Of a stretch of DNA of 32,000 nucleotides, positions 8,019 through 32,000 are shown piece by piece. Below the pieces are notes generated by a model. The model did no database searches and was not told where the DNA came from. It saw nothing but the letters and a program-made list of their open reading frames with translations. Made by a program: the position numbers and the translations under genes. Every line of letters starts with the position of its first letter. Position 1 is the first letter of the stretch. This DNA is from Planctomycetales bacterium (GTDB lineage Bacteria > 4484-113 > JAFGCY01): assembly GCA_022646745.1 (NCBI GenBank), contig CP060262.1, forward strand, positions 1,680,001 to 1,712,000, given 5' to 3'.

Positions 8019-8020
8019 CT

Positions 8021-8306
8021 GTCAGTGGTCGGTGGTCAGTGGTCAAAAGGCAGAAGGCAATAGGCAGGAGGCAGGAACAGAAGCAGAAACAGAAGCAGAA
8101 GCAGAAGCAGAATGAGAAGCAGTTGCAGCAGAGAATAGGGGCATCAGGGTGTGAAAGGTTGCCAAGCAACCCAGACCTTACACAAGCTGCTTCTCATTCT
8201 ATTTCTCATTCTCATTCTCATTCTCCTTCTCATACTCATTCTGCTTCTCATTCACATTCTGCTTCTCATACTCATTCTGTTTCTGGCAACTGTTTACTGT
8301 TTACTG
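8021..8306. repeat. Intergenic imperfect palindrome built from 6-7 nt tandem repeats, between convergent genes
   Basis: The left arm is purine-rich: (TCAGTGG)n, (GCAGAAG)n, (CAGAAG)n, GAGAAT. The right arm carries the complements: (CTTCTC/ATTCTC)n, (CTGTTTA)n. 8109-8122 'agaatgagaagcag' is the exact reverse complement of 8187-8200 'ctgcttctcattct'. A small hairpin ggttgc-caa-gcaacc lies in the central loop at 8157-8171. Confidence 0.85.
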
Positions 8307-13156: not shown

Positions 13157-13177
13157 AGGCGGATTGTACCTTGAAGC

Positions 13178-13460
13178 AAACAGAAGCAGAATCAGAATGA
13201 GAATCAGAAGCAGCAGCACTCAGGCTATAGCCTGCCGGCTCATGCCTTGAGTTTCACTCCCTTCCTGATCTGATCCTTCTCCTTCTGATCTGATCCTTTT
13301 CCTTCTGATTCTGATTCTGATTCTGCTCACTCTTCATTGCTGCCTGCCTGCCATTCCACGGGAATGGCCTCCTGTCAGGCCATGGGCCTGACCTCCACTG
13401 CATTCTGCTTCTGCCTTCTGCCTTCTGCCCACTGACCACTGACCACTGACTACTGTTTAC
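13178..13460. repeat. Intergenic imperfect palindrome of 6-7 nt tandem repeats, in a divergent promoter region
   Basis: 13186-13207 'gcagaatcagaatgagaatcag' matches the reverse complement of 13305-13326 'ctgattctgattctgattctgc' at 21 of 22 positions. 13395-13450 is the reverse complement of the ordered mosaic seen at 8021-8120: (TCAGTGG)3, then (GCAGAAG)n, then GCAGAATG. Internal palindromes are caggctatagcctg (13221-13234) and ccattcc-acg-ggaatgg (13351-13367). Confidence 0.85.
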
Positions 13461-13580
13461 TGATGTTTCCGCCTTTGCTAGATTAATAGAGATACTGGAC
13501 GAGGATGCAGGGGATCCCCACGTGCCGCGCTCCCGGGCCGGGAAGCGCCGGACCTGCCCCGCAATGCCCCGGGAGGCTTC

Positions 13581-16500
13581 ATGCGTAACCGTTTCCTGAC
13601 TGCCGCGCTGGCGTGCATCTGCACTGCTGCGCTCCATTCCAATGCCCGCGCCAACGAGTACACCGTCGATGCCGGGCTGCTGCGTTACCCCGATGTCAGC
13701 GCCGACAGCATCTGCTTCAGCTTCGGCAATGATGTCTGGACCGTGCCGATCAGCGGCGGCACCGCCTCCCGGCTGAGCAGCACCTCCGGCGAGGAGATCC
13801 TCGCGCGCTTCAGCCCGGACGGCTCGCACATCGCCTACAGCGCCAACTACGAGGGCAGCCGCGATGTGTACATCCTGCCGCGCGAGGGTGGCATCCCACA
13901 GCGCCTGACCTGGAACCCCGGGTCCTGCAACATGGTGGACTTCACCGCGGACGGCGACGTGATGTTCTACTCCGGTTACGAGAGCAAGCACAACGGCGGC
14001 GGGCGGATCTACCGGGTCAGCAGCCAGGGCGGCATCCCGACGGCGCTGCCGATGGAGTTCGCCGTCTACGGCACGCTGGACAAGGATGGCAAGACCTTCG
14101 CCTTCACGCCCTCCAGCCGTGAGACCCGCACCTGGAAGCGCTACCAGGGCGGTCTGGCGCAGGATATCTGGCTTTTGGACATCGAGAGCCTCGAAAGCGA
14201 GCAGATCACCGACTGGCCGGGCACCGACGCCCTGCCGATGATCGATGGCAACGATGTGTGGTACATGTCTGACCGGGGCCCGGCGCACCGCCTGAACATC
14301 TGGCGCTACGACCGTACGACGAAAGAGCATACCCAGCTCACCAAGTTCACCGACTACGACATCAAGTGGCCCAGCATGGGCCCCGCGCACATCGTGTTCG
14401 AGAACGGTGGCGACCTCTGGCTGTATGAAAAGGCATCCGGCAAGGCCTCCAAGGTGGCCGTCAGCCTGCCCGGCGACCGTCCGACGCTGATGACAACTGC
14501 GATGGATGTGACGGACCAGTTCGGCGACGTGATGGCCAGCCCCAACGGCAAGCGGCTCGTGGGTGAGGCCCGGGGCGATGTCTGGACCATCCCGGTGGAG
14601 GAGGGCATCAACCGCAACCTGACGATGACGGACGGCTTCGCCGAGCGCAACCCGCGCTGGAGCCCGGACGGGCAGTGGATCTGCTGGCTCGGTGACAACA
14701 CGGGCAACTACGAGATCTACATCGCGCAGTCCGACGGCAAGGGCGAGACCCGCCAGCTGACGAAGGGCAGCGAGACCTTCTACACACGGCCCGAGTGGTC
14801 GCCGGATTCGAAGAAGATCAGCTATGCGGACAGCACCGGCCGGATCCACATCTTCGACATTGACAAGGACGAGTCGCGTGAGATCGACCGCGACCCCTGG
14901 GCCTACTACCCCTACACCAGCGTGAACTGGAGCGCGGACAGCCGCTGGGTGACCTACGGCCGGCTGAACCGTGAGAACCAGAACAGCCAGGTGATGCTCT
15001 ACGACTTTGACAACGACAAGCTGCACAGCGTGACGGATCCGATGTTCGGCCATGTCCAGCCGGTGTTCGACCTTTCCGGCGACTACCTGTACTACATCTC
15101 GCGCCTGAACTTCAACCACCGCTTCGGCGACATGGACTCGACCTACATCTACACCGACAGCCAGGTGCTGTGCGTCGTGCCGCTGCGCAATGACGTGGAC
15201 TCCCCCTTCGCGCTTTCGAATGACGAGGAGGAGATCAAGGCTGAAGAGAAACAGGATGAGAATGAGAAGCAGGATGAGGAGAAGGCGGAAGGCGAGGACG
15301 GCGCTGGCGAGGGCAAGGAAGAGAAAGCCGACAGGAAGGATGGCAAGGACAAGAAAAAGGACAAGAAGAAGGGCATCGACATCGATATTGAGGGCTTCGA
15401 GTCCCGCGCGATCGAGATCCCGCTGCGTCCCGGCAGCTATGGCAACCTGCAGGCCGCCGAGGGCCGCATCTTCTACACCTTCGGCGGCTTCAACAGCGGC
15501 CGCGAGGCCTACACCTACGACCTGAAGGAGCAGAAGGAGGAGAAGCTCGGTGACGGCATCGGCGACTTCCAGCTGCTGCCCGGTGGCAAGCAGATGCTGA
15601 TCAGCGGACGCGGCAACCGCTATGCAATCGTCAAGGCCGGCCCGAATGCCCGCTTCGACAAGGCGGTCAGCGTTGCCAACCTCACCGCCGACATCAACCC
15701 GCGCCATGAGTGGAAGCAGCTGGTGACCGACGCCTGGCGCTTCTACCGAGACCTGTTCTATGCCCCGAACCTGCATGAGGTGGACTGGGACCTGGTCGGC
15801 AAGCGCTACATCGGGATGGTGGACCACGCCGTCAACCGCCAGGATGTGAGCTACATCATCGGCGAGATGATCGGCGAACTGAACACCGGACACACCTACT
15901 ACAGCGGCCCGGGCGAAGCGCAGCCGAACCGCAATGTCGGCCTGCTTGGCGCTGACTATGAGCTGGCAACGCAGGACGGCAGCAGCGCCTGGCGGATCAG
16001 CCACATCTTCCACGGCGCGGACTTCGACGTGGACAGCCGCGGCCCGCTTTCCGAGCCCGGACTGGATGTCGGCGAGGGTGACTTCCTGCTGGCCGTCAAT
16101 GGCGTGGCACTGTCAACGAAACTGCCGGTCTGGGCCGGCTTCCAGGGCATGGCCGGCCAGACGACCATCCTGACAATCTCAGACGACGCGGTGCTTGGCA
16201 ATGATGACGACCGCGAGCTGGTGGTGCGCCCCGTCGGCAACGAGCAGGGCATGCGCCGCTTCGACTGGATCGAGGCCAACCGCCAGAAGGTGCTGGAGGC
16301 GACCGACGGCAAGGTCGGCTACATCTACGTGCCCAACACCAGCGGCGACGGCGTGAACAACCTGATGCGCCAGCTGCAGGGCCAGTACCACCTTGACGGG
16401 CTCGTGATCGACGAGCGCTGGAACGGCGGCGGCTACATCCCGACCTACTTCATCGACATCCTCGGCAGGAAGACCTACAGTTACTGGGCGCGCCGCGACG

Positions 16501-16937
16501 GTGAGGACTGGAGCACGCCGGACCTCGCGCACAACGGACCGAAGGTGATGCTGATCAACGCCAAGAGCGGATCCGGCGGCGATGCCTTCCCGTACTACTT
16601 CCGCCAGGCCGGGCTCGGCCCGCTGGTCGGTACCCGCACCTGGGGCGGCCTGGTCGGCATCTCCGGCTCACCGCGCCTGATCGACGGCAGCCGCCCCTCG
16701 ATCCCGATCTTCGGCTTCTACGAGCTGGACGGCAGCTGGGGCATCGAGGGCCACGGCGTCGATCCGGATATTGAAGTGATTGACGACCCGGGCCTGCTGG
16801 CAAAGGGCCAGGACCCGCAGCTGGACGCGGCGATCACCGAGATCCGCCGCCTGATCTTCGAGCAGCCCTACCGCAAGCCGGGCACCCCGCCCTGGCCGGA
16901 CCGCAGCGGTGTGGGCGTGAAGGAAAGTGAGAAGTAG
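13581..16937 (+). CDS. Secreted tricorn protease homolog (beta-propellers + PDZ + S41 peptidase), paralog 1
   Basis: 1118 aa. GGGAGG lies 5 nt upstream of the ATG. Signal peptide 'MRNRFLTAALACICTAALHSNARA'. Tricorn-like N-terminus 'LRYPDVSADSICFSFGNDVWTVPISGG', repeated 'SPDG' propeller blades, His block 'GELNTGHTYY' and Ser block 'INAKSGSGGDAFPYYFR'. Confidence 0.9.
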   Translation: MRNRFLTAALACICTAALHSNARANEYTVDAGLLRYPDVSADSICFSFGNDVWTVPISGGTASRLSSTSGEEILARFSPDGSHIAYSANYEGSRDVYILPREGGIPQRLTWNPGSCNMVDFTADGDVMFYSGYESKHNGGGRIYRVSSQGGIPTALPMEFAVYGTLDKDGKTFAFTPSSRETRTWKRYQGGLAQDIWLLDIESLESEQITDWPGTDALPMIDGNDVWYMSDRGPAHRLNIWRYDRTTKEHTQLTKFTDYDIKWPSMGPAHIVFENGGDLWLYEKASGKASKVAVSLPGDRPTLMTTAMDVTDQFGDVMASPNGKRLVGEARGDVWTIPVEEGINRNLTMTDGFAERNPRWSPDGQWICWLGDNTGNYEIYIAQSDGKGETRQLTKGSETFYTRPEWSPDSKKISYADSTGRIHIFDIDKDESREIDRDPWAYYPYTSVNWSADSRWVTYGRLNRENQNSQVMLYDFDNDKLHSVTDPMFGHVQPVFDLSGDYLYYISRLNFNHRFGDMDSTYIYTDSQVLCVVPLRNDVDSPFALSNDEEEIKAEEKQDENEKQDEEKAEGEDGAGEGKEEKADRKDGKDKKKDKKKGIDIDIEGFESRAIEIPLRPGSYGNLQAAEGRIFYTFGGFNSGREAYTYDLKEQKEEKLGDGIGDFQLLPGGKQMLISGRGNRYAIVKAGPNARFDKAVSVANLTADINPRHEWKQLVTDAWRFYRDLFYAPNLHEVDWDLVGKRYIGMVDHAVNRQDVSYIIGEMIGELNTGHTYYSGPGEAQPNRNVGLLGADYELATQDGSSAWRISHIFHGADFDVDSRGPLSEPGLDVGEGDFLLAVNGVALSTKLPVWAGFQGMAGQTTILTISDDAVLGNDDDRELVVRPVGNEQGMRRFDWIEANRQKVLEATDGKVGYIYVPNTSGDGVNNLMRQLQGQYHLDGLVIDERWNGGGYIPTYFIDILGRKTYSYWARRDGEDWSTPDLAHNGPKVMLINAKSGSGGDAFPYYFRQAGLGPLVGTRTWGGLVGISGSPRLIDGSRPSIPIFGFYELDGSWGIEGHGVDPDIEVIDDPGLLAKGQDPQLDAAITEIRRLIFEQPYRKPGTPPWPDRSGVGVKESEK

Positions 16938-17051
16938 GCGATAAACTTGCGTCGCCTGAAACATAATCATATGGATATGGTGTCTGGACTTCCCATGGGG
17001 GAAGCCCCGCTGTATTCATCCACATATCCTGGCGCGAGCCATGGAGGAATA

Positions 17052-20000
17052 ATGCTTTACCGTAACCTTATCGCCACGGTGCTTCTGCTGTGCTGCGCCC
17101 AAGCAGTACCGGCGGCCGCTGCCGACTTTGACATCGACGCCGCGATGCTGCGTTTCCCTGATGTCTCGGACACGCAGATCGCGTTTGCTTATAACAACGA
17201 CCTGTGGATCGCCCCCAAGGGTGGTGGCACGGCCGTGCCGCTCAGCAGCCCGGCCGGCACCGAGATCCTGCCGCATTTCAGCCCGGACGGGAAGTCCATT
17301 GCCTTCACTGCCAACTACGAAGGCAACCAGGACGTCTACATCATGCCCGTCGAAGGCGGCATCCCGAAGCGCCTGACCTTCGGCCCGATGCAGGACATGG
17401 TGGTCGGCTTCGACTCCGAGGGCAATGTGCTGTTCTCCAACGCCAGCGAAATGAAGAACTATGGCGGCGGGAAGATCTACAGCATCAGCCCCAATGGCGG
17501 GATCCCCGAGGCCCTGCCGCTGGAGTACGGCGCCTTCTGCAGCGTGGAGGGTGACACCATCGCCTTCACGCCGTCCACCCGCGAGAACCGCACCTGGAAG
17601 CGTTACCAGGGTGGCCTGGCGCAGGACATCTGGCTGCTCAACAAGAAGACACTCGCGAGCGAGCGCATCACCGATTTCCCCGGCACCGATGCCCAGCCGA
17701 TGCTGCACGGCGACAAGGTCTACTTCGTGTCCGATGCCGGTCCGGAGAACCGCCTGAACCTGTGGGTCTATGACCGCACTACGAAGAAGCGCAGCCAGCT
17801 CACTGAATTCAAGGACTTCGACTGCAAGTTCCCCGGCATGGGTCCCTCCGAGATCGTGCTCGAGAACGGTGGCGACCTCTACCTCTACGGCATCGCCAGC
17901 GGCGAGCTGAAGTCCGTCAAGATCCGCATCCCGGGTGACCGCCCGACACTCATGACCCAGAGCGAGGATGTCAGCCCGCTGATCTTCAGTGCCAGCCCCT
18001 CCCCGAACGGAGTGCGCCTCGCGCTTGAGGCCCGCGGCGAGATCTGGACGGTGCCCGTCGAGGACGGCATCAAGCGCAACCTGACGATGTCCCCGGACAG
18101 CAATGAGCGCTACCCGGTCTGGAGCCCTGATGGCAAGTGGATCGCCTACTTCAGCGATGCCGACGGTGACTATGAACTGTATGTGACCCAGAGTGACGGC
18201 CGCGGCGAGACGCGCCAGCTCACGACGGATGACGAGACCTGGTTCACCAACCCGGTCTGGAGCCCGGATTCCAGCAAGATCGCCTTTGCCGACCGCACAG
18301 GATCGATCTTCATTCACAGCATCGAGCAGGAGACCACATTCCTGATCGACGAGGACCCCTGGGCGGCCTACCCCTACACGAATGTGGTCTGGTCGGCGGA
18401 TTCCAGCTGGCTGGCCTACTCGCGGATGGACAATGAGAATGGCAACGGTGTGATCGTGCTGTACGACGTCGTCAACGCCTGGGCGCACCAGGTGACGAGC
18501 TCGATGTTCTCCAGCACCAACCCGACTTTTGACCGCAATGGCAACTACCTGTACTTCCTCACCAACCGCAGCTTCCAGCACAGCTTCGGCGACCTGGACG
18601 AGACTTACGTCTTCCCGGACAGCACGCTGATGGCCTGTGTGCCGCTGCGCAATGACGTGAAGGACCCCTGGGCCGGCGGCAATGACGATGAGGAGATCAA
18701 GGCCGAGGAGAAGGCTGACGAATCCAAGGACGAGGCCAAGGCCGAAGGCGAGGGCGATGAGGCCGCCGACGGGGATAAGCCCGCCGATGAGGAGAAGCCA
18801 GCCGCGGAGGAAGAGAAGCCCGGCCTGAAGATCGACATCGAGGGCTTCGAGGGCCGTGCGATCCTGATGCCGCTGCCCGGTGGCAACTACTGGAACCTGG
18901 AGGCCGGCGAGGGCAAGGTGTTCTACGTCGATGGCAACAACCCGGCCGGCCCGACGATCATGATGTTCGGCGCCGGTGAGGACCAGCCCGCCCCCGTAAT
19001 CGGCGGTGCCTTCGGCTTCGGCCTGCTGCCCGACGGCAAGCGCATGCTTGTCAGCGTCGGTGGCCGGATGGGCATCATCAACGCCGCTCCGAACCAGAAG
19101 CTGGACAAGCCGGTAGACACCTCCGGCCTGGTGATGGAGTACGAGCCGCGTGGGCACTGGCGCTCACTGGTGCGTGATGCGCACCGGATGTACAAGTACC
19201 TGTTCTACGACCCGAACCTGCACAAGGTGGACTGGGACAAGGTCGGCAAGCGCTACATCGGCATGGTTGACGACGCCGTCAACCGCCAGGACATCACCTG
19301 GATCATCTCCGAGATGATCTCCGAGCTGAACGTGGGCCACTCCTACTACGGCGGCCCCTCCGACCCGGCCCCCAGCCGCAGCGTCGGCCTGCTTGGTGCT
19401 GACTACGAATACGTGAATGATGGCAACGGCCAGTCCGGCATCCGCATCGCCCACATCTTCGGCGGCGCGGACTGGGACCTTGATGCCCGCTCGCCGCTCT
19501 GGCTGCCTGGTGAGGACGTGGCAGAGGGCGACTTCATCATCGCCGTCAACAACGTGCCGGTCGACCCGGGCATGCCGCTCGATGCGGCGATGCAGGGCCT
19601 CGCCGGCCAGACCACCGTGCTGACCATCAGTGACGATGCGACGGTTGGCGACGATGACCGCGAGGTGGTCGTCACCCCGATCGGCTGGGACTATGAGCTG
19701 CGCCGCCGCGACTGGATCGAGGCCAACCGCCGCTACGTCGAGGAGAAGACCGGCGGCAAGGTCGGCTACATCTACGTGCCGGACACCGCGCAGGACGGTG
19801 TCAACAACCTGATGCGCCAGTTCGTCGGCCAGTTCACCCGCCAGGGCCTGATCGTCGACGAGCGCTGGAACGGCGGTGGCTACATCCCGACCTACTTCAT
19901 TGACATCCTCTCACGCAAGTCCCGCAGCTACTGGGCGCGCCGCGATGGCAACACCTGGGCGACCCCGACGCTGGCCCACAACGGCCCGAAGGTGATGCTC

Positions 20001-22963: not shown

Positions 22964-23385
22964 GCGGGATGCGGAATGCGGGATGGGGGACGGGCATAAG
23001 GGAGCGCGTAGCGAAGGAACGCGCCAGCGTGACTTAGCTGCGCGAATGGGAATGTGCGATGGTAAATGAAGTGTCCAGTTGTCATTGATCAGATGCTGGA
23101 ATCATTGCTGCAGAATTATCGAGGGCTGCAGCAGCAGCTGACATACGACTGGAATTGAGTGCCTGATCCACTCCGCTTCTCATTGTCATTCCATGCATGG
23201 ACACTGCCCCGATTATCCTCAGTGGCGTGAGAGCTGCAGATAGGTTCCCTGTTCCCTGTTCCCTGTTTCCAGATGATCTGCCCTTCCCCCATCCCCCATC
23301 CCTCGCCCCTCGATTGCCCATCCCCCATCCCGCATCCCTCGCCCCCCGATTGCCCATCCCCCGTCCCGCATCCCCCATCCCGATT
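22964..23385. repeat. Intergenic inverted GGGATG(C)/CATCCC repeat arms with internal 36-bp direct repeat and (CCCTGTT)3
   Basis: 22973-22990 'ggaatgcgggatggggga' matches the reverse complement of 23321-23338 'tcccccatcccgcatccc' at 17 of 18 positions. The direct repeat 'catccctcgcccYcgattgcccatcccc' occurs at 23297-23325 and 23333-23361 (36-nt period). (CCCTGTT)3 lies at 23245-23270. Confidence 0.8.
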
Positions 23386-23409: not shown

Positions 23410-25776
23410 ATGATCTACCTGCTGTTCCTGCTGACCGGAGCCTGCGCGCTCGTATACGAGGTGGTCTGGTCGCGCCAGTTCGGCCTGCTGTTCGGCCATA
23501 CGGCCCAGGCCGCCGCCGTGGTGCTTGGATCCTACTTCAGCGGGATGACGATCGGCTACCTGCTGGCGGCGCGGCTGGCCGGACGGCTGGCACGGCCCCT
23601 GCGCGGTTACGCCATAGCGGAAATCATCGCTGCACTCTGGTCCCTGGCGATTCCGCTCCTGCTCGGCACACTGGCCACGGGCGCACTGGCCGCGCTGCTC
23701 AACAATGACAACACCACGCTGCAGGTCACGATGCGCGCCCTGCTGAGCTTCCTCCTGATGCTGCCTGCCACTGCAGCCCTCGGGGCCAGCCTGCCCTTCG
23801 TGGTACAGCACCTCGCATGCGGTGGTGGCGACCATACGCACCGCATCACACTCGCCTACAGCTTCAACACGCTTGGCGCCTTCGGCGGCGTGATGCTGGC
23901 AACCTTCGTCTTGATCCTCAAGCTCGGTATCCAGGGCAGCCTGCACCTCGCCGTTGCCATCGCGCTCGTCTGCGGCATCGCGGCCTGGCTGTTGCCGGCA
24001 CCGGGGGCTACGGCGGATTCGGCTGTACCTGAACCGGCGGCTAAACAAGTTGAACAGCGCCTGCCGCTGCGCTGGTACCTGCTGGCCGGCCTGAGCGGCT
24101 TCTGCATGCTGGCGGTGCAGGTGCTGTACAACAGCATGTTCAGCCTGGTGTTCCACAACAGCACCTACTCCTTCGGCGCGATCATCGCCGTGTTCCTCGC
24201 AGCGCTGGCGCTGGCCGGCTGGCTGGTCTCTAAATGGCCGGCGATGCATCTCTCGCAGCGCAGTGCGCGCGCCGCCCTGCTCAGTGCCGTTGCCATCCTG
24301 CTCGGTGTGCTGGTCTTCCAGCGCAGCACGCGGCTCGGTTACCTCGGCGTCAGCGTGCCGCTGCTTGGCGGCGACCTGGTGGACCACAGCTTCCTCGGCT
24401 ACATGCTGGCGGCCACGCTCCTGATCGTGATCTCGATCGGCCTGCCTGTGGTGGCAGCCGGCACACTGTTGCCAATGTGCCTGCGCCGCCTGCAGGACCA
24501 CGCCGCTGACAGCGGCCGGCTCGTCGGGCGGCTGGTGGCGCTCAACACTGTCTGCGCGGCCGCAGGTGCGCTGTCCGCCAGCTTCATCATGCTGCCGCTG
24601 CTCGGCCTGTGGCATTCCTTCATGCTGCTGTCGATGCTCTACCTGCTGTTCGGGCTGGCACTCTTGTGGCGTGACGACAGGCTGGGCCAGCTGTCCAGCT
24701 GGGGCGCTGTCAGTTTGGCCGCCTGCCTGGCGCTGGCCTGGTTCACCAACTGGCCGGTTGTCACCAAGGCCGGGCGCAAGCTGATGGTGCAGGAAACGGC
24801 CTACGGCGTTGTCAGTGTGGTTGAGGTTGATGTTGACGGCGAGCCGGAGCTGTACCTGCGCCAGAACAACCACTACACACTCGGGGCCACGCGCGGCATT
24901 GAAAGTGAGCTGCGCCAGGGCAACATCCCGATGCTGCTGCATCCCGACCCTCAGCGGGTCTGCTTCCTCGGGCTGGCAACCGGCATCACAGCCGGGGCTG
25001 CGCTGGACCACCCGGAGCTTGTGCAACTGGACACGGCGGAGCTGATCCCTGAAGTGGCACAGGCCGCCCGCTATTTCGCCGCTGACAACAACTCCATCAA
25101 TGACAACCCGAAGAGCAACATCATCATCAATGATGCGCGACACTACCTCTATGGCACGGCCAACCGCTACGACCTGATCGTGAGCGACCTGTTCGTGCCC
25201 TGGCACAGCCAGACCGGCTACCTCTACACCGTTGAGCATTACCGCGCCGCGCAGGCACGGCTGGCAGAGGGCGGGTTGTTCTGCCAGTGGCTGCCGCTCT
25301 ACCAGCTGGACGCGCGCGAGTTCGAGATGATCTGCGACAGCATGGCGGCGGTGTTCCCCGTCGTCACGCTCTGGCGCGGGGAGTTCAATGACAACAGCTT
25401 CCCGCTGATGATGGTCTGTGGCTCGGATGAGCCGCCGGTGATGGATGCTGATGCACTGACTGTGCGGATTGCCAGCCTGCCGCGCCACAGTGCGCTGCCG
25501 GACCCGAACCTGCGCAGTGTGCAGGACCTGCTGCAGCTGTATGTCGGGGACTGGCCGCGGCGCGAGGGGGCAGAGCTTAACACTGACGACTTCCCGCGCG
25601 TGGAGTTCCTCGCGCCGGTGTCCAACCGCAATTCGCAGGAACTGACCGGCCAGGCGCTGACGGACTACTACTGGGAGGTGCTGCTCGGCCTGCAGCGCGA
25701 GCAGCTGCAGTACATCCCGCGTCGCGCCGAACCGATGCCGGACTTCGACGAGGGAATCCACCGCCAGCTGGACTGA
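23410..25776 (+). CDS. Fused polytopic membrane domain / spermidine synthase-like (polyamine aminopropyltransferase fold) protein
   Basis: 788 aa. The N-terminal half is multi-TM. The C-terminal half has spermidine-synthase-family text: 'ETAYGVVSVVEV...LRQNNHYTLG', 'VCFLGLATGITAGAAL', 'YDLIVSDLFVPWHSQTGYLYTVEHY', 'GGLFCQWLPLYQL'. Confidence 0.85.
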   Translation: MIYLLFLLTGACALVYEVVWSRQFGLLFGHTAQAAAVVLGSYFSGMTIGYLLAARLAGRLARPLRGYAIAEIIAALWSLAIPLLLGTLATGALAALLNNDNTTLQVTMRALLSFLLMLPATAALGASLPFVVQHLACGGGDHTHRITLAYSFNTLGAFGGVMLATFVLILKLGIQGSLHLAVAIALVCGIAAWLLPAPGATADSAVPEPAAKQVEQRLPLRWYLLAGLSGFCMLAVQVLYNSMFSLVFHNSTYSFGAIIAVFLAALALAGWLVSKWPAMHLSQRSARAALLSAVAILLGVLVFQRSTRLGYLGVSVPLLGGDLVDHSFLGYMLAATLLIVISIGLPVVAAGTLLPMCLRRLQDHAADSGRLVGRLVALNTVCAAAGALSASFIMLPLLGLWHSFMLLSMLYLLFGLALLWRDDRLGQLSSWGAVSLAACLALAWFTNWPVVTKAGRKLMVQETAYGVVSVVEVDVDGEPELYLRQNNHYTLGATRGIESELRQGNIPMLLHPDPQRVCFLGLATGITAGAALDHPELVQLDTAELIPEVAQAARYFAADNNSINDNPKSNIIINDARHYLYGTANRYDLIVSDLFVPWHSQTGYLYTVEHYRAAQARLAEGGLFCQWLPLYQLDAREFEMICDSMAAVFPVVTLWRGEFNDNSFPLMMVCGSDEPPVMDADALTVRIASLPRHSALPDPNLRSVQDLLQLYVGDWPRREGAELNTDDFPRVEFLAPVSNRNSQELTGQALTDYYWEVLLGLQREQLQYIPRRAEPMPDFDEGIHRQLD

Positions 25777-25782
25777 CAACAC

Positions 25783-25922
25783 GGGATGCGGGATGAGCAG
25801 AGCAGGCATAGAGCATTGATTGCGGAGCAATGAGCGAAGCAACCTCAATGCAGGATTGGATCATTGCTCATTCTTCATTGCTCATTGCTTCCCACATCCC
25901 TCATCCCACATCCTTCATTGCT
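25783..25922. repeat. Intergenic imperfect palindrome: (GGGATGC)2-(GAGCAG)-(GCAATGA) arm versus (TCATTGC)n-(CATCCC)n arm
   Basis: 25784-25797 'ggatgcgggatgag' matches the reverse complement of 25900-25913 'ctcatcccacatcc' at 13 of 14 positions. The inner arms 'gcggagcaatgagcgaagcaa' and 'tcattgctcattcttcattgctcattgc' are also approximately complementary. Confidence 0.8.
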
Positions 25923-26086
25923 TAATTACTTGCCCCTTCATCCACGCTGCCAAATCTGCAGGCCCCAGTCCAGCGGCCAGATAACAGACAAGAATCGCGT
26001 TGCCAAACATCAATGCACATTAGAAACTCTAAGTGTATGTAGTGATTTTACAAATAATGTATTAGTAAACAAATAGCAAAAACCCA

Positions 26087-26115
26087 TTGACACAGCTTAA
26101 CGGAAATTATATAAA
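26087..26115 (+). promoter_or_regulatory. Near-consensus sigma70-type promoter for the peptidoglycan hydrolase gene
   Basis: TTGACA (26087-26092), a 17-nt spacer, then TATAAA (26110-26115), in a locally AT-rich tract. SD-like GAGGAAGG lies at 26137-26144, before the ATG at 26146. Confidence 0.6.
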
Positions 26116-26145
26116 GTTAGAACTTGGTTTTGCTGTGAGGAAGGC

Positions 26146-26952
26146 ATGGGAAAGACCCCACTGCAGCTATACAAGGAGCTGCCCTCTACTGAACAGATAT
26201 CTGCCGGCGACAGGTCCTGGCACGTCAAGTTGCTGCGCCGGATGCTGGCCATGGCCGGCGCTGCCCCGATCCACTGGATGAACCCCGCCGTCGATGTAGA
26301 CTGGCATTTCGATGACAACCTGCTGACCCTCGTGCACGCATTCCAGAATGCCAACGGATTGCCAGTGTCTGATTCAGTTGATGATGCCTGCTGGAAGAAG
26401 CTTGCCGAGGCCTGCGAAACGGCGCCGGTTGGCAACGGTGATCCTCTGCCGGCTGCCGGCCCTGCCAGGGACCGTGTTGCCAGGCGGATAGTGGAAATCG
26501 CCCAGGCGGCTGAGGCCCGCGGAATACGGGAACATGGCAGCAACTCTGGTGCCACCGTGCGCATGCTTTTGCGCCATGCCGGCCTGGATGGCGCCTTTGC
26601 CTGGTGCATGGCCTTTGTCTGGGCGGTGGTGGACCTCGCATACTTCCTCGAGCAGCAGATGCCCCCGGTGCTTGAGCCGGTGCAGAAGCGCTCCTGCAGC
26701 AACCTGGTGGCATGGGCCCGGCTCCACCATTCGCTTATAGAAAACCCGCTGCACGCGCAGCCCGGCGACCTCTGGGTGCAACGCGGCGGCGAAACCGGCT
26801 TCAAGCATGTCGGCGTGATCACCGGTGTCAGTGGCAACAGGGCGAGCACGGTCGAGGGCAACACAAATCACCGTGGCAGCGACGAGGGCGAGGGCGTATA
26901 TGCGCATGCGCGGCCACTGGATGACAGCCAGTGCGTGGTGGTGAGGCTGTAG
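26146..26952 (+). CDS. Peptidoglycan-binding domain + CHAP/NlpC-P60-like cysteine amidase/peptidase (endolysin-like cell-wall hydrolase)
   Basis: 268 aa with no signal peptide. PG_binding_1-like text: 'VKLLRRMLAMAG...FDDNLLTLVHAFQNANGLPVSDSVDDACWKKL'. The catalytic-type triad context 'GAFAWCMAFVWAV', 'GFKHVGVITG', 'STVEGNTN' resembles CHAP/TIGR02594-type hydrolases. Confidence 0.75.
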   Translation: MGKTPLQLYKELPSTEQISAGDRSWHVKLLRRMLAMAGAAPIHWMNPAVDVDWHFDDNLLTLVHAFQNANGLPVSDSVDDACWKKLAEACETAPVGNGDPLPAAGPARDRVARRIVEIAQAAEARGIREHGSNSGATVRMLLRHAGLDGAFAWCMAFVWAVVDLAYFLEQQMPPVLEPVQKRSCSNLVAWARLHHSLIENPLHAQPGDLWVQRGGETGFKHVGVITGVSGNRASTVEGNTNHRGSDEGEGVYAHARPLDDSQCVVVRL

Positions 26953-26954
26953 CA

Positions 26955-27791
26955 ATGGCAATGCAGTTCCCCATCGCGCTCTACACCACGATGCTCGACA
27001 CCGAGCATTCCCGGCTCGGCCACCTCTGGCACCGTGCGAAGAACAGCCAGCCGCCGGACTGGTACGGCCAGCCCTGGCCTGAGCTGGACAGGGTGTTCGT
27101 GGAGCAGAGCGTGGTGCACCGCGTCGGCACTCATGAGTTCAGCATCGCCAGTGAGAAGCACAAGCGGAAGTCGGCGGGGATCCTCTCAAGTGTACTGCGC
27201 AGCTTCGGCGTGCTGGACTTCCAGATGGAGCGGCTGCGCAGCCGCAGCTTTGTTGCCAAAGTGAAGTTGCACGACTACGTACGGCCGACGCTGTCACTGG
27301 CGGCCCTCTCACGCCTGCTGGGCTACACGGTGCCGCCGACATACGCGGGCGGGCACTGGTTCGCCTGCCATGCCCAGCACCAGGCCACCAGCGGCTCGCT
27401 GGAACTGGCCTACGACCGCTCGGATGGCTACGACCTGGCCGCCGAACTGGAGGCCAGAGGAAACTCTGGCAACACTGCCCTGCCTGGTGCACGAGGGAAT
27501 AATGGAGGTGCGATCACGCAAGGCGTGAATGTCGCACAAGCGGAGCGCGTAGCGGACTCCGGCGATGAGCCGGAGGCAGCTGCGCAGTACTCCCCATCCC
27601 CCATCCCACATCCCGCGTCCCCCGCGGGTAGCCTGCACCTGGAGGACCAGTCCTCCGGCCTGCAGCTCTTCTCCTTCCGCGCCTCCAGGCCACTTGTCTT
27701 CGGCGTCAGCCTGCAGCACATCTGGGAGAAGGACGGCAAGCTCGCATCATTCGGCAACAAGCACGAGGACCTGGAATATGCGGGGAGCTGA
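26955..27791 (+). CDS. Hypothetical protein, translationally coupled to the hydrolase gene
   Basis: The ATG at 26955 lies 2 nt after the upstream TAG (26950-26952), with GAGG at 26943-26946. 278 aa, no TM segment, no signal peptide and no recognised motif. It contains an in-frame copy of the CATCCC-type repeat (27592-27628), so the extent of the real gene is somewhat uncertain. Confidence 0.55.
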   Translation: MAMQFPIALYTTMLDTEHSRLGHLWHRAKNSQPPDWYGQPWPELDRVFVEQSVVHRVGTHEFSIASEKHKRKSAGILSSVLRSFGVLDFQMERLRSRSFVAKVKLHDYVRPTLSLAALSRLLGYTVPPTYAGGHWFACHAQHQATSGSLELAYDRSDGYDLAAELEARGNSGNTALPGARGNNGGAITQGVNVAQAERVADSGDEPEAAAQYSPSPIPHPASPAGSLHLEDQSSGLQLFSFRASRPLVFGVSLQHIWEKDGKLASFGNKHEDLEYAGS

Positions 27792-27797
27792 GTAAGT

Positions 27798-27818
27798 AGC
27801 CCGGCTACAAGCCGGGCT
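27798..27818 (+). terminator. GC-rich hairpin after the stop codon (no T-tract)
   Basis: agcccggc-tacaa-gccgggct forms a perfect 8-bp stem starting 7 nt after the TGA at 27789-27791. It is followed by heptamer repeats rather than a U-tract, so intrinsic-terminator function is uncertain. Confidence 0.45.
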
Positions 27819-27819
27819 G

Positions 27820-27848
27820 TCAGTAGTCAGTGGTCAGTGGTCAGTGGC
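27820..27848. repeat. (TCAGTGG)-type heptamer tandem repeat, third occurrence of this motif class
   Basis: The tract 'tcagtagtcagtggtcagtggtcagtggc' uses the same heptamer as 8021-8044 and, as the complement, 13428-13450. Confidence 0.8.
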
Positions 27849-28073
27849 CAGTTGTCAGATCATGTAGCAGCAGCGCTCCCGCCGCTGATTTGAAAAGTGA
27901 CATCGATGCATCGCCCGTCTTCAACGCCCCACTCGCACTTCATTACCTCCCCGCAGCAGCGTCCCTCCTTCGTTGGACTGAGAACCGCACTACCGCTTCC
28001 CACGCGGGTAAGCACTGAATACACCACATTGGCATCTTGATGAAATATTGATAAATCAATGATGATATCTTGA

Positions 28074-28102
28074 TTGACAACCAGTCGCCGGCCTTGTATA
28101 AG
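28074..28102 (+). promoter_or_regulatory. Near-consensus sigma70-type promoter at the left edge of the AT-rich cassette
   Basis: TTGACA (28074-28079), a 17-nt spacer, then TATAAG (28097-28102). TTGAT/ATCAA repeats lie immediately upstream. It would give a leader of about 230 nt before the ATG at 28336. Confidence 0.55.
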
Positions 28103-28335
28103 TAATGCGAATGCAGTTCTAGTTAGAACAATGACATGTTCTCAGGAGAAGGAAAGCATTCACAAAACGTCGAAACAGATTTGGCTGGTATAGTGTCAAG
28201 GCTTCGTAAGTTGATTTCAAATTTACTTGTCGTACTCTCTGAGTTTCATTGCATGATACTAGGTAATGTTGATACTCAATGTTCTTAGATACTCTAAAGA
28301 ACATAGTGATCGCAAGTCATTCTCTAGGAGAAAAC

Positions 28336-30213
28336 ATGTTAGATTACAAATCATTGCTTGAAAAGGCAAGAACAATTTTTCAGATTAATCCAAACAGTGA
28401 TTTGTTTCCGGGAGAAAAATGGTTGTATAATTTTGCATTTGTTATATGTATTTTTACAGGCATTGTAGATATTTATAATTACAGGTATCGCATTTCCATT
28501 GAACTGATCATTTTTTGTATGGTTGGAATATGTTTACTTGTAATAGTAGGGGCCCATGTTATGACATTTAAGACCGATGATGGAGAAGAGTATCAAGCAC
28601 CAGGTGGTTTTACAGTTTATAGAAATTTAAGAGATAGAAATCCTAAGTTAAGGTCAATTACTGATTTTGCTAAATTACCTGAGGTTCATTACAATATTTT
28701 AAAACTCTTTCCAGTGCAGCAATTGATTTTAATGAGATTGATGTCACTTTGTGGTTTGTCAATTATCAGTCTAGTCACTGGTGTTTATATCAACGCACTG
28801 TTTATTTCGGAGGATTCAATAGTATATAAGCATATACTTTCTTTAAAAAAGCAAACACACATTCTTGATTATTTAAAGAGTAAGGAAATTGCTGCTGATT
28901 TACAACAATGCATTGTTCAATTAGAAGAGTTAGAAGATGAAGAATCCGACAAGAGTGTGAGTGAGGATCAAAATATTGGCGAGTCAAACATTGTGAAATC
29001 GTGCATGAAACATTTTACTGGCATTGTTGATAATCAGTATGAATATCAACTAATTGAATATGCAACTATTGATAGATTCTTAAAATTATTCATGAACACA
29101 CGTTTTGCTATTTTGATTCGTGATTATGAAACAAATTCTACAGGATCAGATAATCATACTGAAATATTGAAGCTACAAGATGCATGGGATATTTATTGCA
29201 AGGATTGTGTGTTTTGTATTGAAAGACTCAATGAAATCAGAAAGGGAAGTACAAGTACAGAAGACGAATACGGTAGAAGTGTTTACTTAATGTCTGAAAT
29301 AAGTATTGCCATTCTAGAAATTTGGAGTGAAAACACTAAGAAACTGTGTACTTTTCAGTTGAAAGATGATAACAGCAAGAAAGTCATATTTTCCAAGAGT
29401 CTTTATCAAGTTCTTAATGAACGAATTGATCCAGATCAATTGAATCGACAACAATACATTGATTGGGTAAATAGACAGTCAATGATTCTTACTTATATGG
29501 CTTATATGGATAATGACATTGGGATAAGTCCAACGGATCCGAGTAAACTGAAAGAAGCATATGAACTCAGTCATAATGCATTTCTCTCAAATTCCCTGAG
29601 TTTTAAGTGTGTAGTTGGACATGCGAGAAACACTCAACTTCTATTTCGATATGCATATAATGACAGCTTGGATTTAAAAGAATTGTCGTCTATATATGAT
29701 AACATGGTGATCAATCGTTCACAATGGGGCATAGTTCCTGGTAGTCTTTATGAGGAACATTACAATAGTAATTTACTTAGTGTTGGCTTGGTATATATTA
29801 TTCGAGAATTAGAAAAAGTGGACTTTGATGTGAGTAGACTAACTAATAAGCAAAAAAACAAATTGGTAGATGTTTCGAATACAATTGCGTCTTGTAATAA
29901 AAGATTAAGAATGCTGAACATTCAAGATGAGTTGTCGGAATGGGAATGGGATTTTATGGCATCACATTTAGAAGTATGTATAGGCAACTATCTGCTCTCA
30001 GAAGATCCCAAGGCTGTTACTGCGAATAGGAATAGTGTAACCTATCAGTTTAACTCATTAATGTTAAAAACAGAAAATTTAGAACAGATTGATGCAATAC
30101 GACTAAATGTGTTGGAAGTTTATCTGATGAATGATGATTTGTTTGAGGAGTTGACAAAATCTTTGCAATTGAGAAAATCTGAACTGAATTCAAAGGAGAC
30201 TTCAGTAGAATAA
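28336..30213 (+). CDS. Membrane-anchored orphan protein (3-4 N-terminal TM helices + about 430-aa helical soluble domain), unknown family, horizontally acquired
   Basis: The track ORF starts at 28279. The ATG at 28336 is preferred because AGGAG (28326-28330) sits 5 nt upstream, and 28279-28304 forms an 8-bp inverted repeat. G+C is about 27-30% in sampled lines. TM segments: 'WLYNFAFVICIFTGIVDIY', 'IELIIFCMVGICLLVIVGAHVM', 'LILMRLMSLCGLSIISLVTGVYINALFI'. I recognise no catalytic motif. Confidence 0.8.
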   Translation: MLDYKSLLEKARTIFQINPNSDLFPGEKWLYNFAFVICIFTGIVDIYNYRYRISIELIIFCMVGICLLVIVGAHVMTFKTDDGEEYQAPGGFTVYRNLRDRNPKLRSITDFAKLPEVHYNILKLFPVQQLILMRLMSLCGLSIISLVTGVYINALFISEDSIVYKHILSLKKQTHILDYLKSKEIAADLQQCIVQLEELEDEESDKSVSEDQNIGESNIVKSCMKHFTGIVDNQYEYQLIEYATIDRFLKLFMNTRFAILIRDYETNSTGSDNHTEILKLQDAWDIYCKDCVFCIERLNEIRKGSTSTEDEYGRSVYLMSEISIAILEIWSENTKKLCTFQLKDDNSKKVIFSKSLYQVLNERIDPDQLNRQQYIDWVNRQSMILTYMAYMDNDIGISPTDPSKLKEAYELSHNAFLSNSLSFKCVVGHARNTQLLFRYAYNDSLDLKELSSIYDNMVINRSQWGIVPGSLYEEHYNSNLLSVGLVYIIRELEKVDFDVSRLTNKQKNKLVDVSNTIASCNKRLRMLNIQDELSEWEWDFMASHLEVCIGNYLLSEDPKAVTANRNSVTYQFNSLMLKTENLEQIDAIRLNVLEVYLMNDDLFEELTKSLQLRKSELNSKETSVE

Positions 30214-30368
30214 AAGCCAATGGATTGTTTTATCTGGAATGTTACCTGAACAATTAATAACGTAAAAGTGACATAAAGAAATTAGGTAATAATTGTACGG
30301 TGATGGTAATCACCTGACACTTGCCCCTCCGGCGGGGTTTTCAGTCTAGGCTGTATTCCGCTTCTTTG

Positions 30369-30577
30369 TCACCCCCTTTTTCGTCTCCTTTGGAACCCTT
30401 CCGTGAACACCGCGTAGGGTGTCCTGCCGTCCTTGCCTCGGCCCTGTTGAGGGCGCCTGGTGTTGTAGTGCACCAGATAGGCATTCAGTCCTCCTGCATT
30501 TCCGCCAAGCTTTCGTAGAACTTCTGGCATACATCTTCCGGAAGTGCTTGGCCATCAAAGAACGATGCAGTCGCTAT
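30369..30577 (-). pseudogene. C-terminal remnant of an IS481-type (rve/DDE integrase-core) transposase, 5'-truncated and frameshifted
   Basis: The minus-strand translation gives '...FFDGQALPEDVCQKFYESLAEMQED' and then an in-frame TGA (30485-30487). The homology continues in another frame from 30488 as 'LNAYLVHYNTRRPQQGRGKDGRTPYAVFTEGF...' to the stop at 30369-30371. The 'YN..RPHQ-like...GRTP' tail is the classic end of rve-domain transposases. This is a GC-rich patch inside AT-rich DNA. A possible element terminus (TG...) lies near 30315. Confidence 0.7.
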
Positions 30578-30633
30578 GGAATTGATCATTAGAAGCAAAA
30601 GACAAGGGCGTATGTCAATGTATAATTTTGAGA

Positions 30634-31131
30634 ATGAGTCAAAGCGAGGAAGAGCTGCGTGACGAATATTGCAAAGCAATTGGCATGCTCGTCGTTGCAT
30701 TCAATGATTTGGAAGTGGATTTGAAATGGCAGAGCACCTTCTTGATTCCAGGCGTTGAGCTGAGTGAGGACATAGAGGAGATTAGAATCTTCTCTCGCTT
30801 GATGATGGGGCACTTGTCTTTTTCCCAAGTTCTGGAGATGTATAAGACCTTACTCAAGAGGGTGTTCGACCAGACTGAACATAGAGAAATCGCAGCACAC
30901 GTTAAGAGCCTAGACGATATTCGTGAGCGTCGAAACTTCTTCGTACATGCGAATTTCGCTGTCAGAAGGATTACAACTGGCCCTCCCGTACTATTGAAGT
31001 ATCAGAGATTCAGGGAGGAGTTTCGCATGGAAGATGTTGACGTAGCTGCGATCTATGACCTGATAGCTGAAATACAGGATGCTGCGAGTGCATGCCAGAC
31101 CTTTTGCGGCAAAGCCATAATGTTGAAATGA
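30634..31131 (+). CDS. Small HEPN-like protein (putative RNase; R-x4-H motif)
   Basis: 165 aa counted from the ATG at 30634 (the track uses TTG at 30628). All-helical character. 'LDDIRERRNFFVHANF' contains RN-x3-H (R at 30931-30933, H at 30946-30948), the HEPN signature. G+C is intermediate, about 45-50% in sampled lines. Confidence 0.55.
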   Translation: MSQSEEELRDEYCKAIGMLVVAFNDLEVDLKWQSTFLIPGVELSEDIEEIRIFSRLMMGHLSFSQVLEMYKTLLKRVFDQTEHREIAAHVKSLDDIRERRNFFVHANFAVRRITTGPPVLLKYQRFREEFRMEDVDVAAIYDLIAEIQDAASACQTFCGKAIMLK

Positions 31132-31132
31132 G

Positions 31133-32000
31133 CTACCCCAGACCCTTCTCCATCTGTTCCCTGACCACCCCTGCGATCTGGCGGGACTGCGCCATCGCCG
31201 CATCGGCTTCCTCGCGGACCTTCGCGCGGTATTCGCTCTTCTTCGGCATCGAGTTGGTATTGATCAGCACGTTGTAGTATGCGCCTTCCGCGCAGGCCAG
31301 CGCCATCGCGGCTCCAGTGCCTGCATCCGACAGTGCGTTCTGGTTGCCCTTTTCGGCGACTTCGCGGCAGAGTTCCAGGGTTTCCACGCAGCGCTTCAGC
31401 GTTGCCAGCGGTACTTCGGTCACGCCGACGGTCGCCTGCTTGATCGCGGCTGAGCGCGCCTTCTGCTCCTCGTCAGTGTTCTTCGGCATGCCGAAGGTGT
31501 CCATCAGGATGTTGAATGCCGCGGTGTCATCGTCAATCGCGCGCAGGTATTCATCCTTCAGCTGCTGCGCCCGCGTTGCGATCCGGTTCATGTCCTTCTT
31601 CACCGGCGCATAGCCCGGCTTGCCGACCGTCAGGTTCGGCACCATCGCTGCAAGACCCGCCGCCAATGCGCCGGCCAGGGCGGCCACCGAGCCACCACCG
31701 GGGGCCGGGCTGACAGAGGCCAGCTCCTCCACGAAGTCCGTCACGCTCATCTTTGCCAGCGGCCGCACACTGTCGTCAATCGCATACTCCACGATGCGTT
31801 TCTGCGGATCGAACTCGCCCAGCTCAGTCAGGCCCAGCGTCTGGATGGCAACGCGCACCAGCTCGCGCTCACTCACCCCGGTGCAGACCTTCTTCTGCTT
31901 CCTGAGGAAATGCCGCCCGGCATCCGTCAGCGCGGACAGCGGGATCAGCCCGACCAGCTCACTGCCGGTCACCCTGAGGCCGTACTCCCGCGCCAGCTCG
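31133..32000 (-). CDS. ftcD: Glutamate formimidoyltransferase / formimidoyltetrahydrofolate cyclodeaminase (C-terminal part; gene continues beyond the window)
   Basis: The cyclodeaminase-domain text 'SVTDFVEELASVSPAPGGGSVAALAGALAAGLAAMV' is preceded by the transferase-domain end 'GSELVGLIPLSAL'. The reading frame stays open upstream of the track start ('ELAREYGLRV...') to the window edge. The stop (cta) is at 31133-31135. Confidence 0.85.
   Translation of the reverse strand, partial: ELAREYGLRVTGSELVGLIPLSALTDAGRHFLRKQKKVCTGVSERELVRVAIQTLGLTELGEFDPQKRIVEYAIDDSVRPLAKMSVTDFVEELASVSPAPGGGSVAALAGALAAGLAAMVPNLTVGKPGYAPVKKDMNRIATRAQQLKDEYLRAIDDDTAAFNILMDTFGMPKNTDEEQKARSAAIKQATVGVTEVPLATLKRCVETLELCREVAEKGNQNALSDAGTGAAMALACAEGAYYNVLINTNSMPKKSEYRAKVREEADAAMAQSRQIAGVVREQMEKGLG

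Follow-up and report, generated by a model that had tools for sequence, protein, structure and literature searches.

Results

Genes and features of the locus

The DNA analysed here, referred to as the window, is a stretch of 32,000 nucleotides (nt) of a Planctomycetales bacterium (GenBank assembly GCA_022646745.1, contig CP060262.1, positions 1,680,001 to 1,712,000 of the forward strand), and towards its right-hand end two conserved genes converge on a variable site: p278 on the left and ftcD, encoding a formimidoyltransferase-cyclodeaminase, on the right. Between them lies a cassette with two orphan genes, whose products have 625 and 165 amino acids (aa), and a remnant of an IS481-type insertion sequence (IS) (Table 1). 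The extent of the cassette was set by blastn against L027, the contig of the closest relative: the alignment stops at 27792 and restarts at 31129 with a 4-nt overlap, and the extra DNA therefore comprises 27793-31132 (3340 nt), flanked by the 4-nt direct repeat TGAG. The junctions read ...GGGAGC TGA G / TAAGTAG... on the left and ...TTGAAA TGA G / CTACCCC... on the right, where the stop codon of the 165-aa open reading frame (ORF; TGA, 31129-31131) and that of ftcD (CTA, 31133-31135) are 1 nt apart, as the initial annotation of this DNA had noted. That annotation had also described a foreign, mosaic insert fitted exactly to the gene ends, a description upheld by the empty site of the closest relative, and had placed its start at 27990, about 200 nt to the right of the measured one. 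Identical junctions were found in three other assemblies (99.96-100% identity), and the 625-aa and 165-aa ORFs, both called independently by gene callers on these three assemblies, are real coding frames.

Table 1. Features of the p278-ftcD region, numbered from the first nucleotide of the window
Feature	Position	Strand	Remarks
CHAP/PG-binding gene	26146-26952		Pairs with downstream p278
p278, left flanking native gene	26955-27791	+	G+C content of third codon positions (GC3) 0.81; C-terminus intact
Left TGAG copy	27789-27792	.	p278 stop TGA + G; matches the empty-site sequence of L027
Spacer, left end of extra DNA	27793-28020	+	G+C 0.58, 228 nt, native-style
AT-rich upstream region	28034-28102	+	11-nt repeat and promoter-like hexamers; putative function
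Orphan 625-aa gene	28336-30213	+	G+C 0.32, GC3 0.275
3' fragment of IS481-type transposase gene and presumed IS end	30294-30600	-	Outer limits estimated
Terminator-like GC hairpin with GTTTTCAG tail	30320-30346	+	About 110 nt 3' of the 625-aa stop, inside the IS end; weak
Promoter-like AAGACA-16-TATAAT	30599-30626	+	10/12 matches in promoter scan; putative function
Orphan 165-aa gene	30634-31131	+	G+C 0.46; stop codon within right TGAG copy
Right TGAG copy, right junction	31129-31132	.	blastn and sequence reading
ftcD (formimidoyltransferase-cyclodeaminase), 3' part	31133-32000	-	Right flanking core gene; runs off the window

The site in related genomes

Relatives were found from ftcD-bearing genomes and by a protein search with the p278 alignment, and the reading of their contigs gave seven related contexts. 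The order spermidine synthase, CHAP gene, p278, site, ftcD and truB is conserved. In L027, together with the independent Logan assembly L028, the p278 homologue is 89% identical, the flanks are 86-100% identical to the window (300-nt intervals), and the gene order is that of the window, with two Tricorn-like proteases, a glycosyltransferase, an Rce1-like protease, an acetyltransferase, spermidine synthase, CHAP, p278, ftcD and truB. The synteny comparison that the initial annotation had proposed revealed here the empty site, ...GGGAGT TGA G CTA CCCC..., which consists of the p278 stop, one G and the ftcD stop with nothing in between. The site is also empty in L029/L030 (TGA ttca TCA; p278 57% identical), while in L004, which has no p278, the stop codons of the CHAP gene and ftcD overlap. 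In its native state the p278-ftcD locus has flush convergent stops, as seen in L027, L029 and L004; the former argument that stops so close leave no room for a terminator and so betray an insertion was weak, and it is the empty site that provides the evidence.

Other relatives carry different DNA at this site. The cassette of L005 (3.7 kb, G+C 0.33-0.46), at the same position between p278 and ftcD, encodes a PtuA-type ATPase, a PtuB-type HNH protein and a patatin phospholipase effector (PADLOC, E = 2.8e-39, 6.6e-13 and 1.1e-51, respectively), with Pfam matches to AAA_21/AAA_15 for PtuA and to Patatin (9.9e-21), and the patatin ORF extends with its 3' end 23 nt into the end of ftcD. The L006 cassette (1.9 kb, G+C 0.38-0.44) encodes two proteins without a PADLOC defence match, a membrane protein of 312 aa and a PKD lipoprotein of 113 aa. 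In L035 (p278 60% identical), p278 is followed by a lower-GC stretch with a 170-aa protein that has a signal-peptide-like N-terminus and no Pfam defence match; this contig stops before ftcD, and the cassette is placed as downstream of p278 only. All occupied sites have a G+C content of 0.33-0.46 against 0.64-0.70 in the flanks, and every cassette is transcribed in the direction of p278, towards ftcD. The cassettes of L005, L006 and L035 differ in gene content, and when each was compared with the window proteins no similarity was found. The same conserved genes flank empty (L027/L028 and L029/L030) and occupied (window, L005 and L006) states, which makes the site a cassette hotspot; as the L006 and L035 cassettes encode envelope or secreted proteins and lack defence matches, it is not a defence-only one.

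As a separate observation, the Septu arrangement of L005 is unusual. Its PtuA-like ATPase (L005:12825-14318, minus strand) has a hydrophobic insertion at about aa 175-235 that, from the translation, has the look of two membrane helices and lies between the N-terminal P-loop part and the C-terminal ATPase part, and the patatin effector is joined to the operon.

Identity between the window and L027 varied along the flanks. It was about 100% over 16714-19700 (L027:1-2990; 2 differences in 3 kb), 87-99% and patchy up to 22700, 86-97% from 23300 to the site, and 91-96% in ftcD. Divergence from the empty-site relative therefore rises towards the site, from about 100% identity at 8-11 kb to its left to 86-97% in the adjoining DNA. 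The change from a stretch of about 100% to 8 kb of patchy 86-99% identity may reflect a mosaic of recombination tracts of co-occurring strains or a mixing of strains in metagenome assembly.

Base composition and boundaries of the cassette

In 300-nt intervals, the G+C content of the flanks was 0.61-0.69 up to about 27.9 kb (mean 0.641, standard deviation 0.044, over 183 flank intervals); it was 0.30-0.34 between 28.2 and 30.3 kb, 0.53 between 30.30 and 30.60 kb and 0.44-0.47 between 30.45 and 31.05 kb, and again above 0.58 from 31.05 kb on. By segment, G+C content was 0.328 in 28021-30293 (z = -7.1 against the flanks), 0.528 in 30294-30600, the IS481-type fragment (0.58-0.61 in 100-nt intervals), and 0.455 in 30601-31132 (z = -4.2). 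The tetranucleotide distance to the flank profile was 0.084-0.090 in the cassette and 0.029 +/- 0.005 in the flanks, an approximately threefold difference. Both measures bear out the atypical profile described before, for which the hand-counted 27-30% G+C was slightly low and the remaining values were correct. The compositional break lies near 28020, while the inserted DNA, by comparison with the empty site, starts earlier, at 27793. Four patches make up the cassette: a native-style spacer, 2.3 kb at 33% G+C with the 625-aa gene, the 3' stump of the IS481-type gene, and 0.5 kb at 46% G+C with the 165-aa gene.

No terminal inverted repeats were seen by eye at the ends of the extra DNA (TAAGTAGCCCGG... 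and ...ATAATGTTGAAA), nor did a repeat search of 25500-32000 yield a terminal pair. Insertion of all 3.3 kb as one transposon or IS was considered and rejected: the 4-nt direct repeat TGAG is present, but terminal inverted repeats were not found. The window contains no tRNA or tmRNA gene, the region 25500-32000 had no match in Rfam, and a Pfam search detected no recombinase or integrase among the cassette ORFs; an island linked to an integrase or a tRNA was likewise rejected, no integrase, tRNA or tmRNA being present at the boundary.

In the spacer, the p278 stop is directly followed by a perfect 9-bp hairpin (27798-27818), after which come (GTCAGTG)n repeats (27819-27858) and another GC hairpin (27868-27887), as read from the sequence and with Tandem Repeats Finder (TRF). 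L006 has the same build of hairpin, heptamers and hairpin 3' of p278, L035 has it with other heptamers, and (GTCAGTG)-type heptamers recur in other intergenic regions of the window. In the AT-rich region that follows, an 11-nt repeat that includes a TTGATAAATCAA palindrome is present in about 3.7 copies (28034-28074), and a candidate promoter, TTGACA-17-TATAAG, was read from the sequence at 28074-28102; the automatic promoter scan omits it because the last base of its -10 is G. The 11-mer TCAATGATGAT stands at the GC-to-AT transition both in the window (28055-28065) and in L006 (12540-12550, minus strand); neither L005 nor L035 has it. A common junction or operator sequence is one reading and coincidence another, and chance in AT-rich DNA is plausible. 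The -10 of the second promoter-like sequence (Table 1) ends 7 nt before the ATG of the 165-aa gene, so that the transcript would be leaderless if this promoter were used. Each orphan gene had been credited with its own sigma70-like promoter, and hexamer matches indeed exist, but such matches are common in this AT-rich DNA, with 16 against 8.8 +/- 3.1 in shuffles. Terminator-like sites numbered 1 against 2.3 expected.

The two orphan genes and the IS481-type remnant

The 625-aa gene has an AGGAGA ribosome site 5 nt 5' of its ATG. Its product contains hydrophobic segments at about aa 29-47 (marginal), 53-75 and 129-157, followed by about 460 aa that are predicted to be all-helical; on grounds of positive charge, this large part after the membrane segments is probably cytoplasmic. 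No internal repeats were found. A word-indexed search of 5.8 billion clusters returned only the protein itself, and the sole match in an exhaustive phmmer search of 1.84 billion representatives was a 100-aa fragment of it. There was no significant match in Pfam, NCBIfam, PADLOC or PHROGs (in PADLOC-DB v2, no match at all), none among PDB sequences, none by tblastn in phages or plasmids and none in viral contigs, and family searches found no adhesin, transporter or glycosylation domain. The single-sequence AlphaFold2 (AF2) model was all-helical with a predicted local distance difference test score (pLDDT) of 45; its Foldseek matches, to generic helical bundles, solenoids and helical repeats, had query-normalised TM-scores of at most 0.23 and were set aside as uninformative.

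The 176-codon stop-free frame of the 165-aa gene was reached in 0 of 2000 shuffles. The protein had been called a HEPN nuclease, a label that the present searches do not establish. It carries RNFFVH at aa 100-105, about two-thirds along the chain, and 62% of shuffles of its sequence contain Rx4-6H, while 9% contain the stricter R[NHD]x3-5H. Two profile matches, both within aa 56-109, were below threshold: CARF_HEPN of PADLOC (E = 0.014) and DUF7809 of Pfam (E = 0.043; 14.5 bits against a cutoff of 27), a family for which a literature search returned no papers mentioning it. No match to a HEPN family profile reached significance, nothing significant was obtained in PADLOC, Pfam, NCBIfam, PHROGs or PDB sequences, and sequence-cluster and metagenome searches gave no homologues. 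Two metagenome sequences that first resembled homologues (27% identity) were rejected because they run antisense to a genuine gene, for a 683-aa product with an HD-type signalling motif, and were seeded by an NFFVHANF pattern. The AF2 single-sequence model is all-helical (pLDDT 39), and in it RNFFVH starts the helix 93-114 after three long helices. Foldseek with this model (pLDDT 39) returned no match at E <= 0.001 and no HEPN protein, and its matches to generic helical bundles and solenoids (query-normalised TM-score at most 0.52) were discarded. The term HEPN-like is therefore a lead and not a finding.

These results agree with the previous description of two orphan genes, the 625-aa one encoding a membrane protein: no relatives of either were found, the proposed PADLOC search gave no significant match for either, no related genome carries these genes, and neither protein matched a family with a non-defence role.

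The decayed IS481-type transposase reported between the two genes was recovered with better support after frameshift correction. A 53-aa minus-strand ORF matched the NCBIfam IS481 model with E = 0.009, and the corrected 76-aa translation matched positions 245-284 of its 284 positions with E = 1.2e-7. What survives is the last 40-50 codons, with one frameshift; the first approximately 245 model positions, including the catalytic part, are gone, and the segment of 46% G+C takes their place. Membership in the IS481 family holds for the fragment only, an intact DDE domain and both terminal inverted repeats being absent, and the ends of the IS would be definable from a full-length copy.

Flanking genes and other features of the window

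All p278 homologues, at 43-89% identity, stand directly after a CHAP gene. For p278 itself there was no Pfam match and no family, a PDB profile search was empty, a metagenome scan with the p278 profile found nothing, and PADLOC gave a weak match to bacterial gasdermin (bGSDM; E = 0.005, aa 234-280). The conserved parts of p278 are the N-terminal 170 aa and the C-terminal 50 aa, and the middle is variable and of low complexity. In L006, the homologue (12762-13891, minus strand) has an expanded tandem low-complexity middle with repeated GGPMSVGRADNxESG units, and a frameshift moves the conserved C-terminal 50 aa into another frame, indicating a pseudogene or an assembly error. The protein with CHAP and PG_binding domains is endolysin-like (PHROG 1.5e-12) and has no obvious signal peptide. 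The CHAP-p278 pair is kept even in L031 (43% identical), in another neighbourhood with an M48 peptidase upstream and a hydrolase downstream, and may be a two-gene lysis or conflict module of its own. On the other side of the site, ftcD matched FTCD_C (1.7e-64) and FTCD (2.4e-17) in Pfam; its C-terminus is intact, and the 562-aa proteins of relatives likewise end in ...GLG.

Upstream of the CHAP gene, a second dip in G+C content (0.44-0.46) at 25800-26145 is about 95-97% identical in L027 and is thus a native AT-rich regulatory region, not a second insertion. Intergenic arrays of 6-7-nt tandem repeats (GTCAGTG, CAGAAG, TTCTCA, CTGTTTA, CCCATCC, TCCCACA; GGGATCA in L035), often beside GC hairpins, were seen in the window at 8021-8313, 13173-13455, 22964-23381, 25861-25918 and 27819-27858, and at L006:12560-12760 and L035:1011-1230. 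A 20-nt hairpin, GGTCAGGCCCATGGCCTGAC, is present at 8000-8019 (plus strand) and again on the minus strand near 13371-13390, and GTCAGTGGTCAG with at most 2 mismatches occurs 15 times against 2.9 expected. Three tandem paralogues of 540, 536 and 566 aa (8307-13219, minus strand), 25-31% identical over the C-terminal 300-400 aa, had no Pfam match.

Discussion

Comparison with known systems

Core-gene-flanked hotspots such as cDHS1/2 of Pseudomonas aeruginosa contain defence cassettes that are unrelated to one another, are lower in G+C and in many cases lack a mobility gene; for core hotspots and replacement-type islands, exchange by recombination in the flanks has been proposed (Johnson et al., 2023; PMC10250203). 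Defence hotspots of Escherichia coli are the subject of Hochhauser et al. (2023; PMC10121019). The p278-ftcD locus follows the pattern of defence hotspots flanked by core genes, and of replacement islands, in Pseudomonas, E. coli and Vibrio. In common with those of Pseudomonas and E. coli, it is a fixed site between conserved genes, either empty or filled with short, dissimilar cassettes of lower G+C, with at least one known defence occupant, transposase remnants, no single type of mobile element and, likely, exchange by recombination in the flanks. In contrast to them, the site is tiny, with 1-4 nt in the empty and 1.9-3.7 kb in the occupied state, compared with medians of 6-26 kb; it has no adjoining tRNA or tmRNA; the gap in G+C content is about 30 points instead of about 6; and the host lineage is uncultured, with seven genomes or contigs sampled and one clear defence case among four occupied sites, which does not establish an enrichment in defence systems. 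The Septu (PtuA ATPase and PtuB HNH nuclease) and patatin set of L005 shares with the window cassette the identical position, low G+C (0.33-0.46), the same direction and a last gene that runs into the ftcD stop, but has no similarity to the window genes, so that its relevance is by location only.

HEPN proteins fold as an all-alpha, four-helix up-down bundle. Their catalytic motif, Rx4-6H, in which the R is usually followed by a polar residue, opens the fourth helix. Anantharaman et al. reportedly described, in 2013, minimal HEPN RNase toxins of toxin-antitoxin and abortive-infection systems. The 165-aa protein resembles such toxins in its small size, its predicted all-helical structure, the position of R-N-x3-H at the predicted beginning of a long helix preceded by three others, and its location in a variable island; it differs in that none of its profile matches is significant, its fold model is unusable and an MNT or antitoxin partner gene is lacking, and its motif is not statistically distinctive. 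Lactococcal abortive-infection (Abi) proteins include single-gene, membrane-anchored ones. The 625-aa gene is similar to these in architecture only: it is large, encodes N-terminal membrane segments, a large soluble domain and no conserved enzymatic domain, and is AT-rich relative to its host and horizontally acquired. Its product shows no similarity in sequence or profile to any Abi or PADLOC family.

Origin of the cassette

Taken together, the base-exact comparison with the empty site, the foreign composition and the different occupants in relatives make it probable that 27793-31132 is a strain-specific, horizontally acquired mosaic cassette in a replacement-type hotspot between the converging p278 and ftcD genes. 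The three patches of unlike G+C content and the truncated IS would be explained by capture of foreign DNA through illegitimate or IS-linked joining, with the patches brought in on separate occasions, and TGAG has the appearance of microhomology. Whole units of spacer and cassette would then have been exchanged between related strains through homologous recombination in the flanks.

Some observations point the other way. The rise of divergence towards the site is taken from the metagenome-assembled contigs of one project and from one side only, and strain mixing could create it. The 165-aa ORF may be closed by junction sequence and hence be truncated at its 3' end, unless TGAG is microhomology. 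On the side of function, the window proteins match no defence, phage or general family, and the AF2 models are too poor for use; recognised defence systems occupy one of the four filled sites (L005), with none in L006, L035 or the window, in what is a small sample, and two of the four hold envelope or secreted proteins. Finally, the spacer of hairpin, heptamers and hairpin is common to three loci that cover the known range of p278 diversity (window, L006 and L035; 60-71% identity), as would be expected if the occupied state were ancestral and the window had retained what L027 lost, with spacer and cassette removed by a deletion from TGAG to TGAG. L004, which lost p278 and in which the CHAP stop now overlaps that of ftcD, indicates that deletions trimmed to stop codons occur here. 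This order of events is a possibility to be taken seriously, though not the favoured one: both the closest (L027) and a distant (L029) relative are flush, the contents of the cassettes have no detected similarity, so that replacement would be needed anyway, and simple repeats of this kind, being present in numerous intergenic regions of these genomes, might have arisen in parallel. A misjoining of low-GC DNA from another organism into the contig would agree with its origin in a metagenome assembly and with the extreme jump in G+C content. An artefact of this kind is extremely improbable and was rejected, as the same junctions are present in three other assemblies, from other assemblers and samples, and in the 4.1-Mb genome contig at NCBI, and both lie exactly at the stop codons of intact genes.

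Possible functions

The initial annotation had proposed an anti-phage island, and this proposal gains from the Septu and patatin genes at the same site in L005 and loses from the failure of both window proteins to match PADLOC, Pfam, NCBIfam or PHROGs at significance. By analogy of location only, the cassette genes might act in conflict with, or defence against, phages or mobile elements, a suggestion that we offer as tentative. The 625-aa protein would then be a stand-alone effector or sensor of abortive-infection type acting through its probably cytoplasmic helical domain, and the 165-aa protein would be an independent HEPN-type RNase toxin. The two genes need not form one module, given their G+C contents of 0.32 and 0.46 and the IS scar between them, features that argue against a single co-evolved two-gene module. 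The more specific proposal, in which the first is a new stand-alone effector of abortive-infection type, the second a highly divergent HEPN RNase toxin and the site a miniature defence hotspot, is doubtful. It is also rather unlikely that the site serves as a replacement island for membrane and secreted proteins at large and that the cargo, including the 625-aa protein, functions in the envelope or in niche adaptation. The membrane protein and PKD-domain lipoprotein of L006, the signal-peptide-like protein of L035, the absence of defence matches for these and the two or three hydrophobic segments of the 625-aa protein itself would suit such a role, against which stand the clear Septu and patatin set in L005, the apparently cytoplasmic position of the part after the last hydrophobic segment and the absence from the 625-aa protein of adhesin, transporter or glycosylation domains. 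That the ORFs are functionless debris, what IS activity and deletions have left of a larger mobile element, is an unlikely explanation as well. It would account for the mosaic structure, the frameshifted and truncated IS481 gene, the unlike G+C content of the three patches, the ORF stop within the junction repeat and the want of homologues for both proteins. However, an unselected frame decays quickly, and a frame of 625 codons with a strong AGGAGA site is open in DNA of 33% G+C, the frame of the 165-aa gene exceeds all those of its shuffled controls, and four assemblies made from different samples have the cassette in identical form.

Implications

Whatever its cargo does, the locus is a very clean natural example of cassette replacement, with a 1-nt empty site, base-exact junctions, a contrast of about 30 points in G+C content and divergence that rises towards the site. 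In other respects it is ordinary flexible genome, orphan genes in low-GC islands being common. If the cargo is defensive, it would include a defence gene without detectable relatives that was found purely by location, and the concept of core-gene-flanked hotspots would extend to a poorly known, uncultured wastewater lineage. Were the site indeed a miniature defence hotspot, it could be used to find further systems not yet described, possibly including the cargos of L006 and L035.

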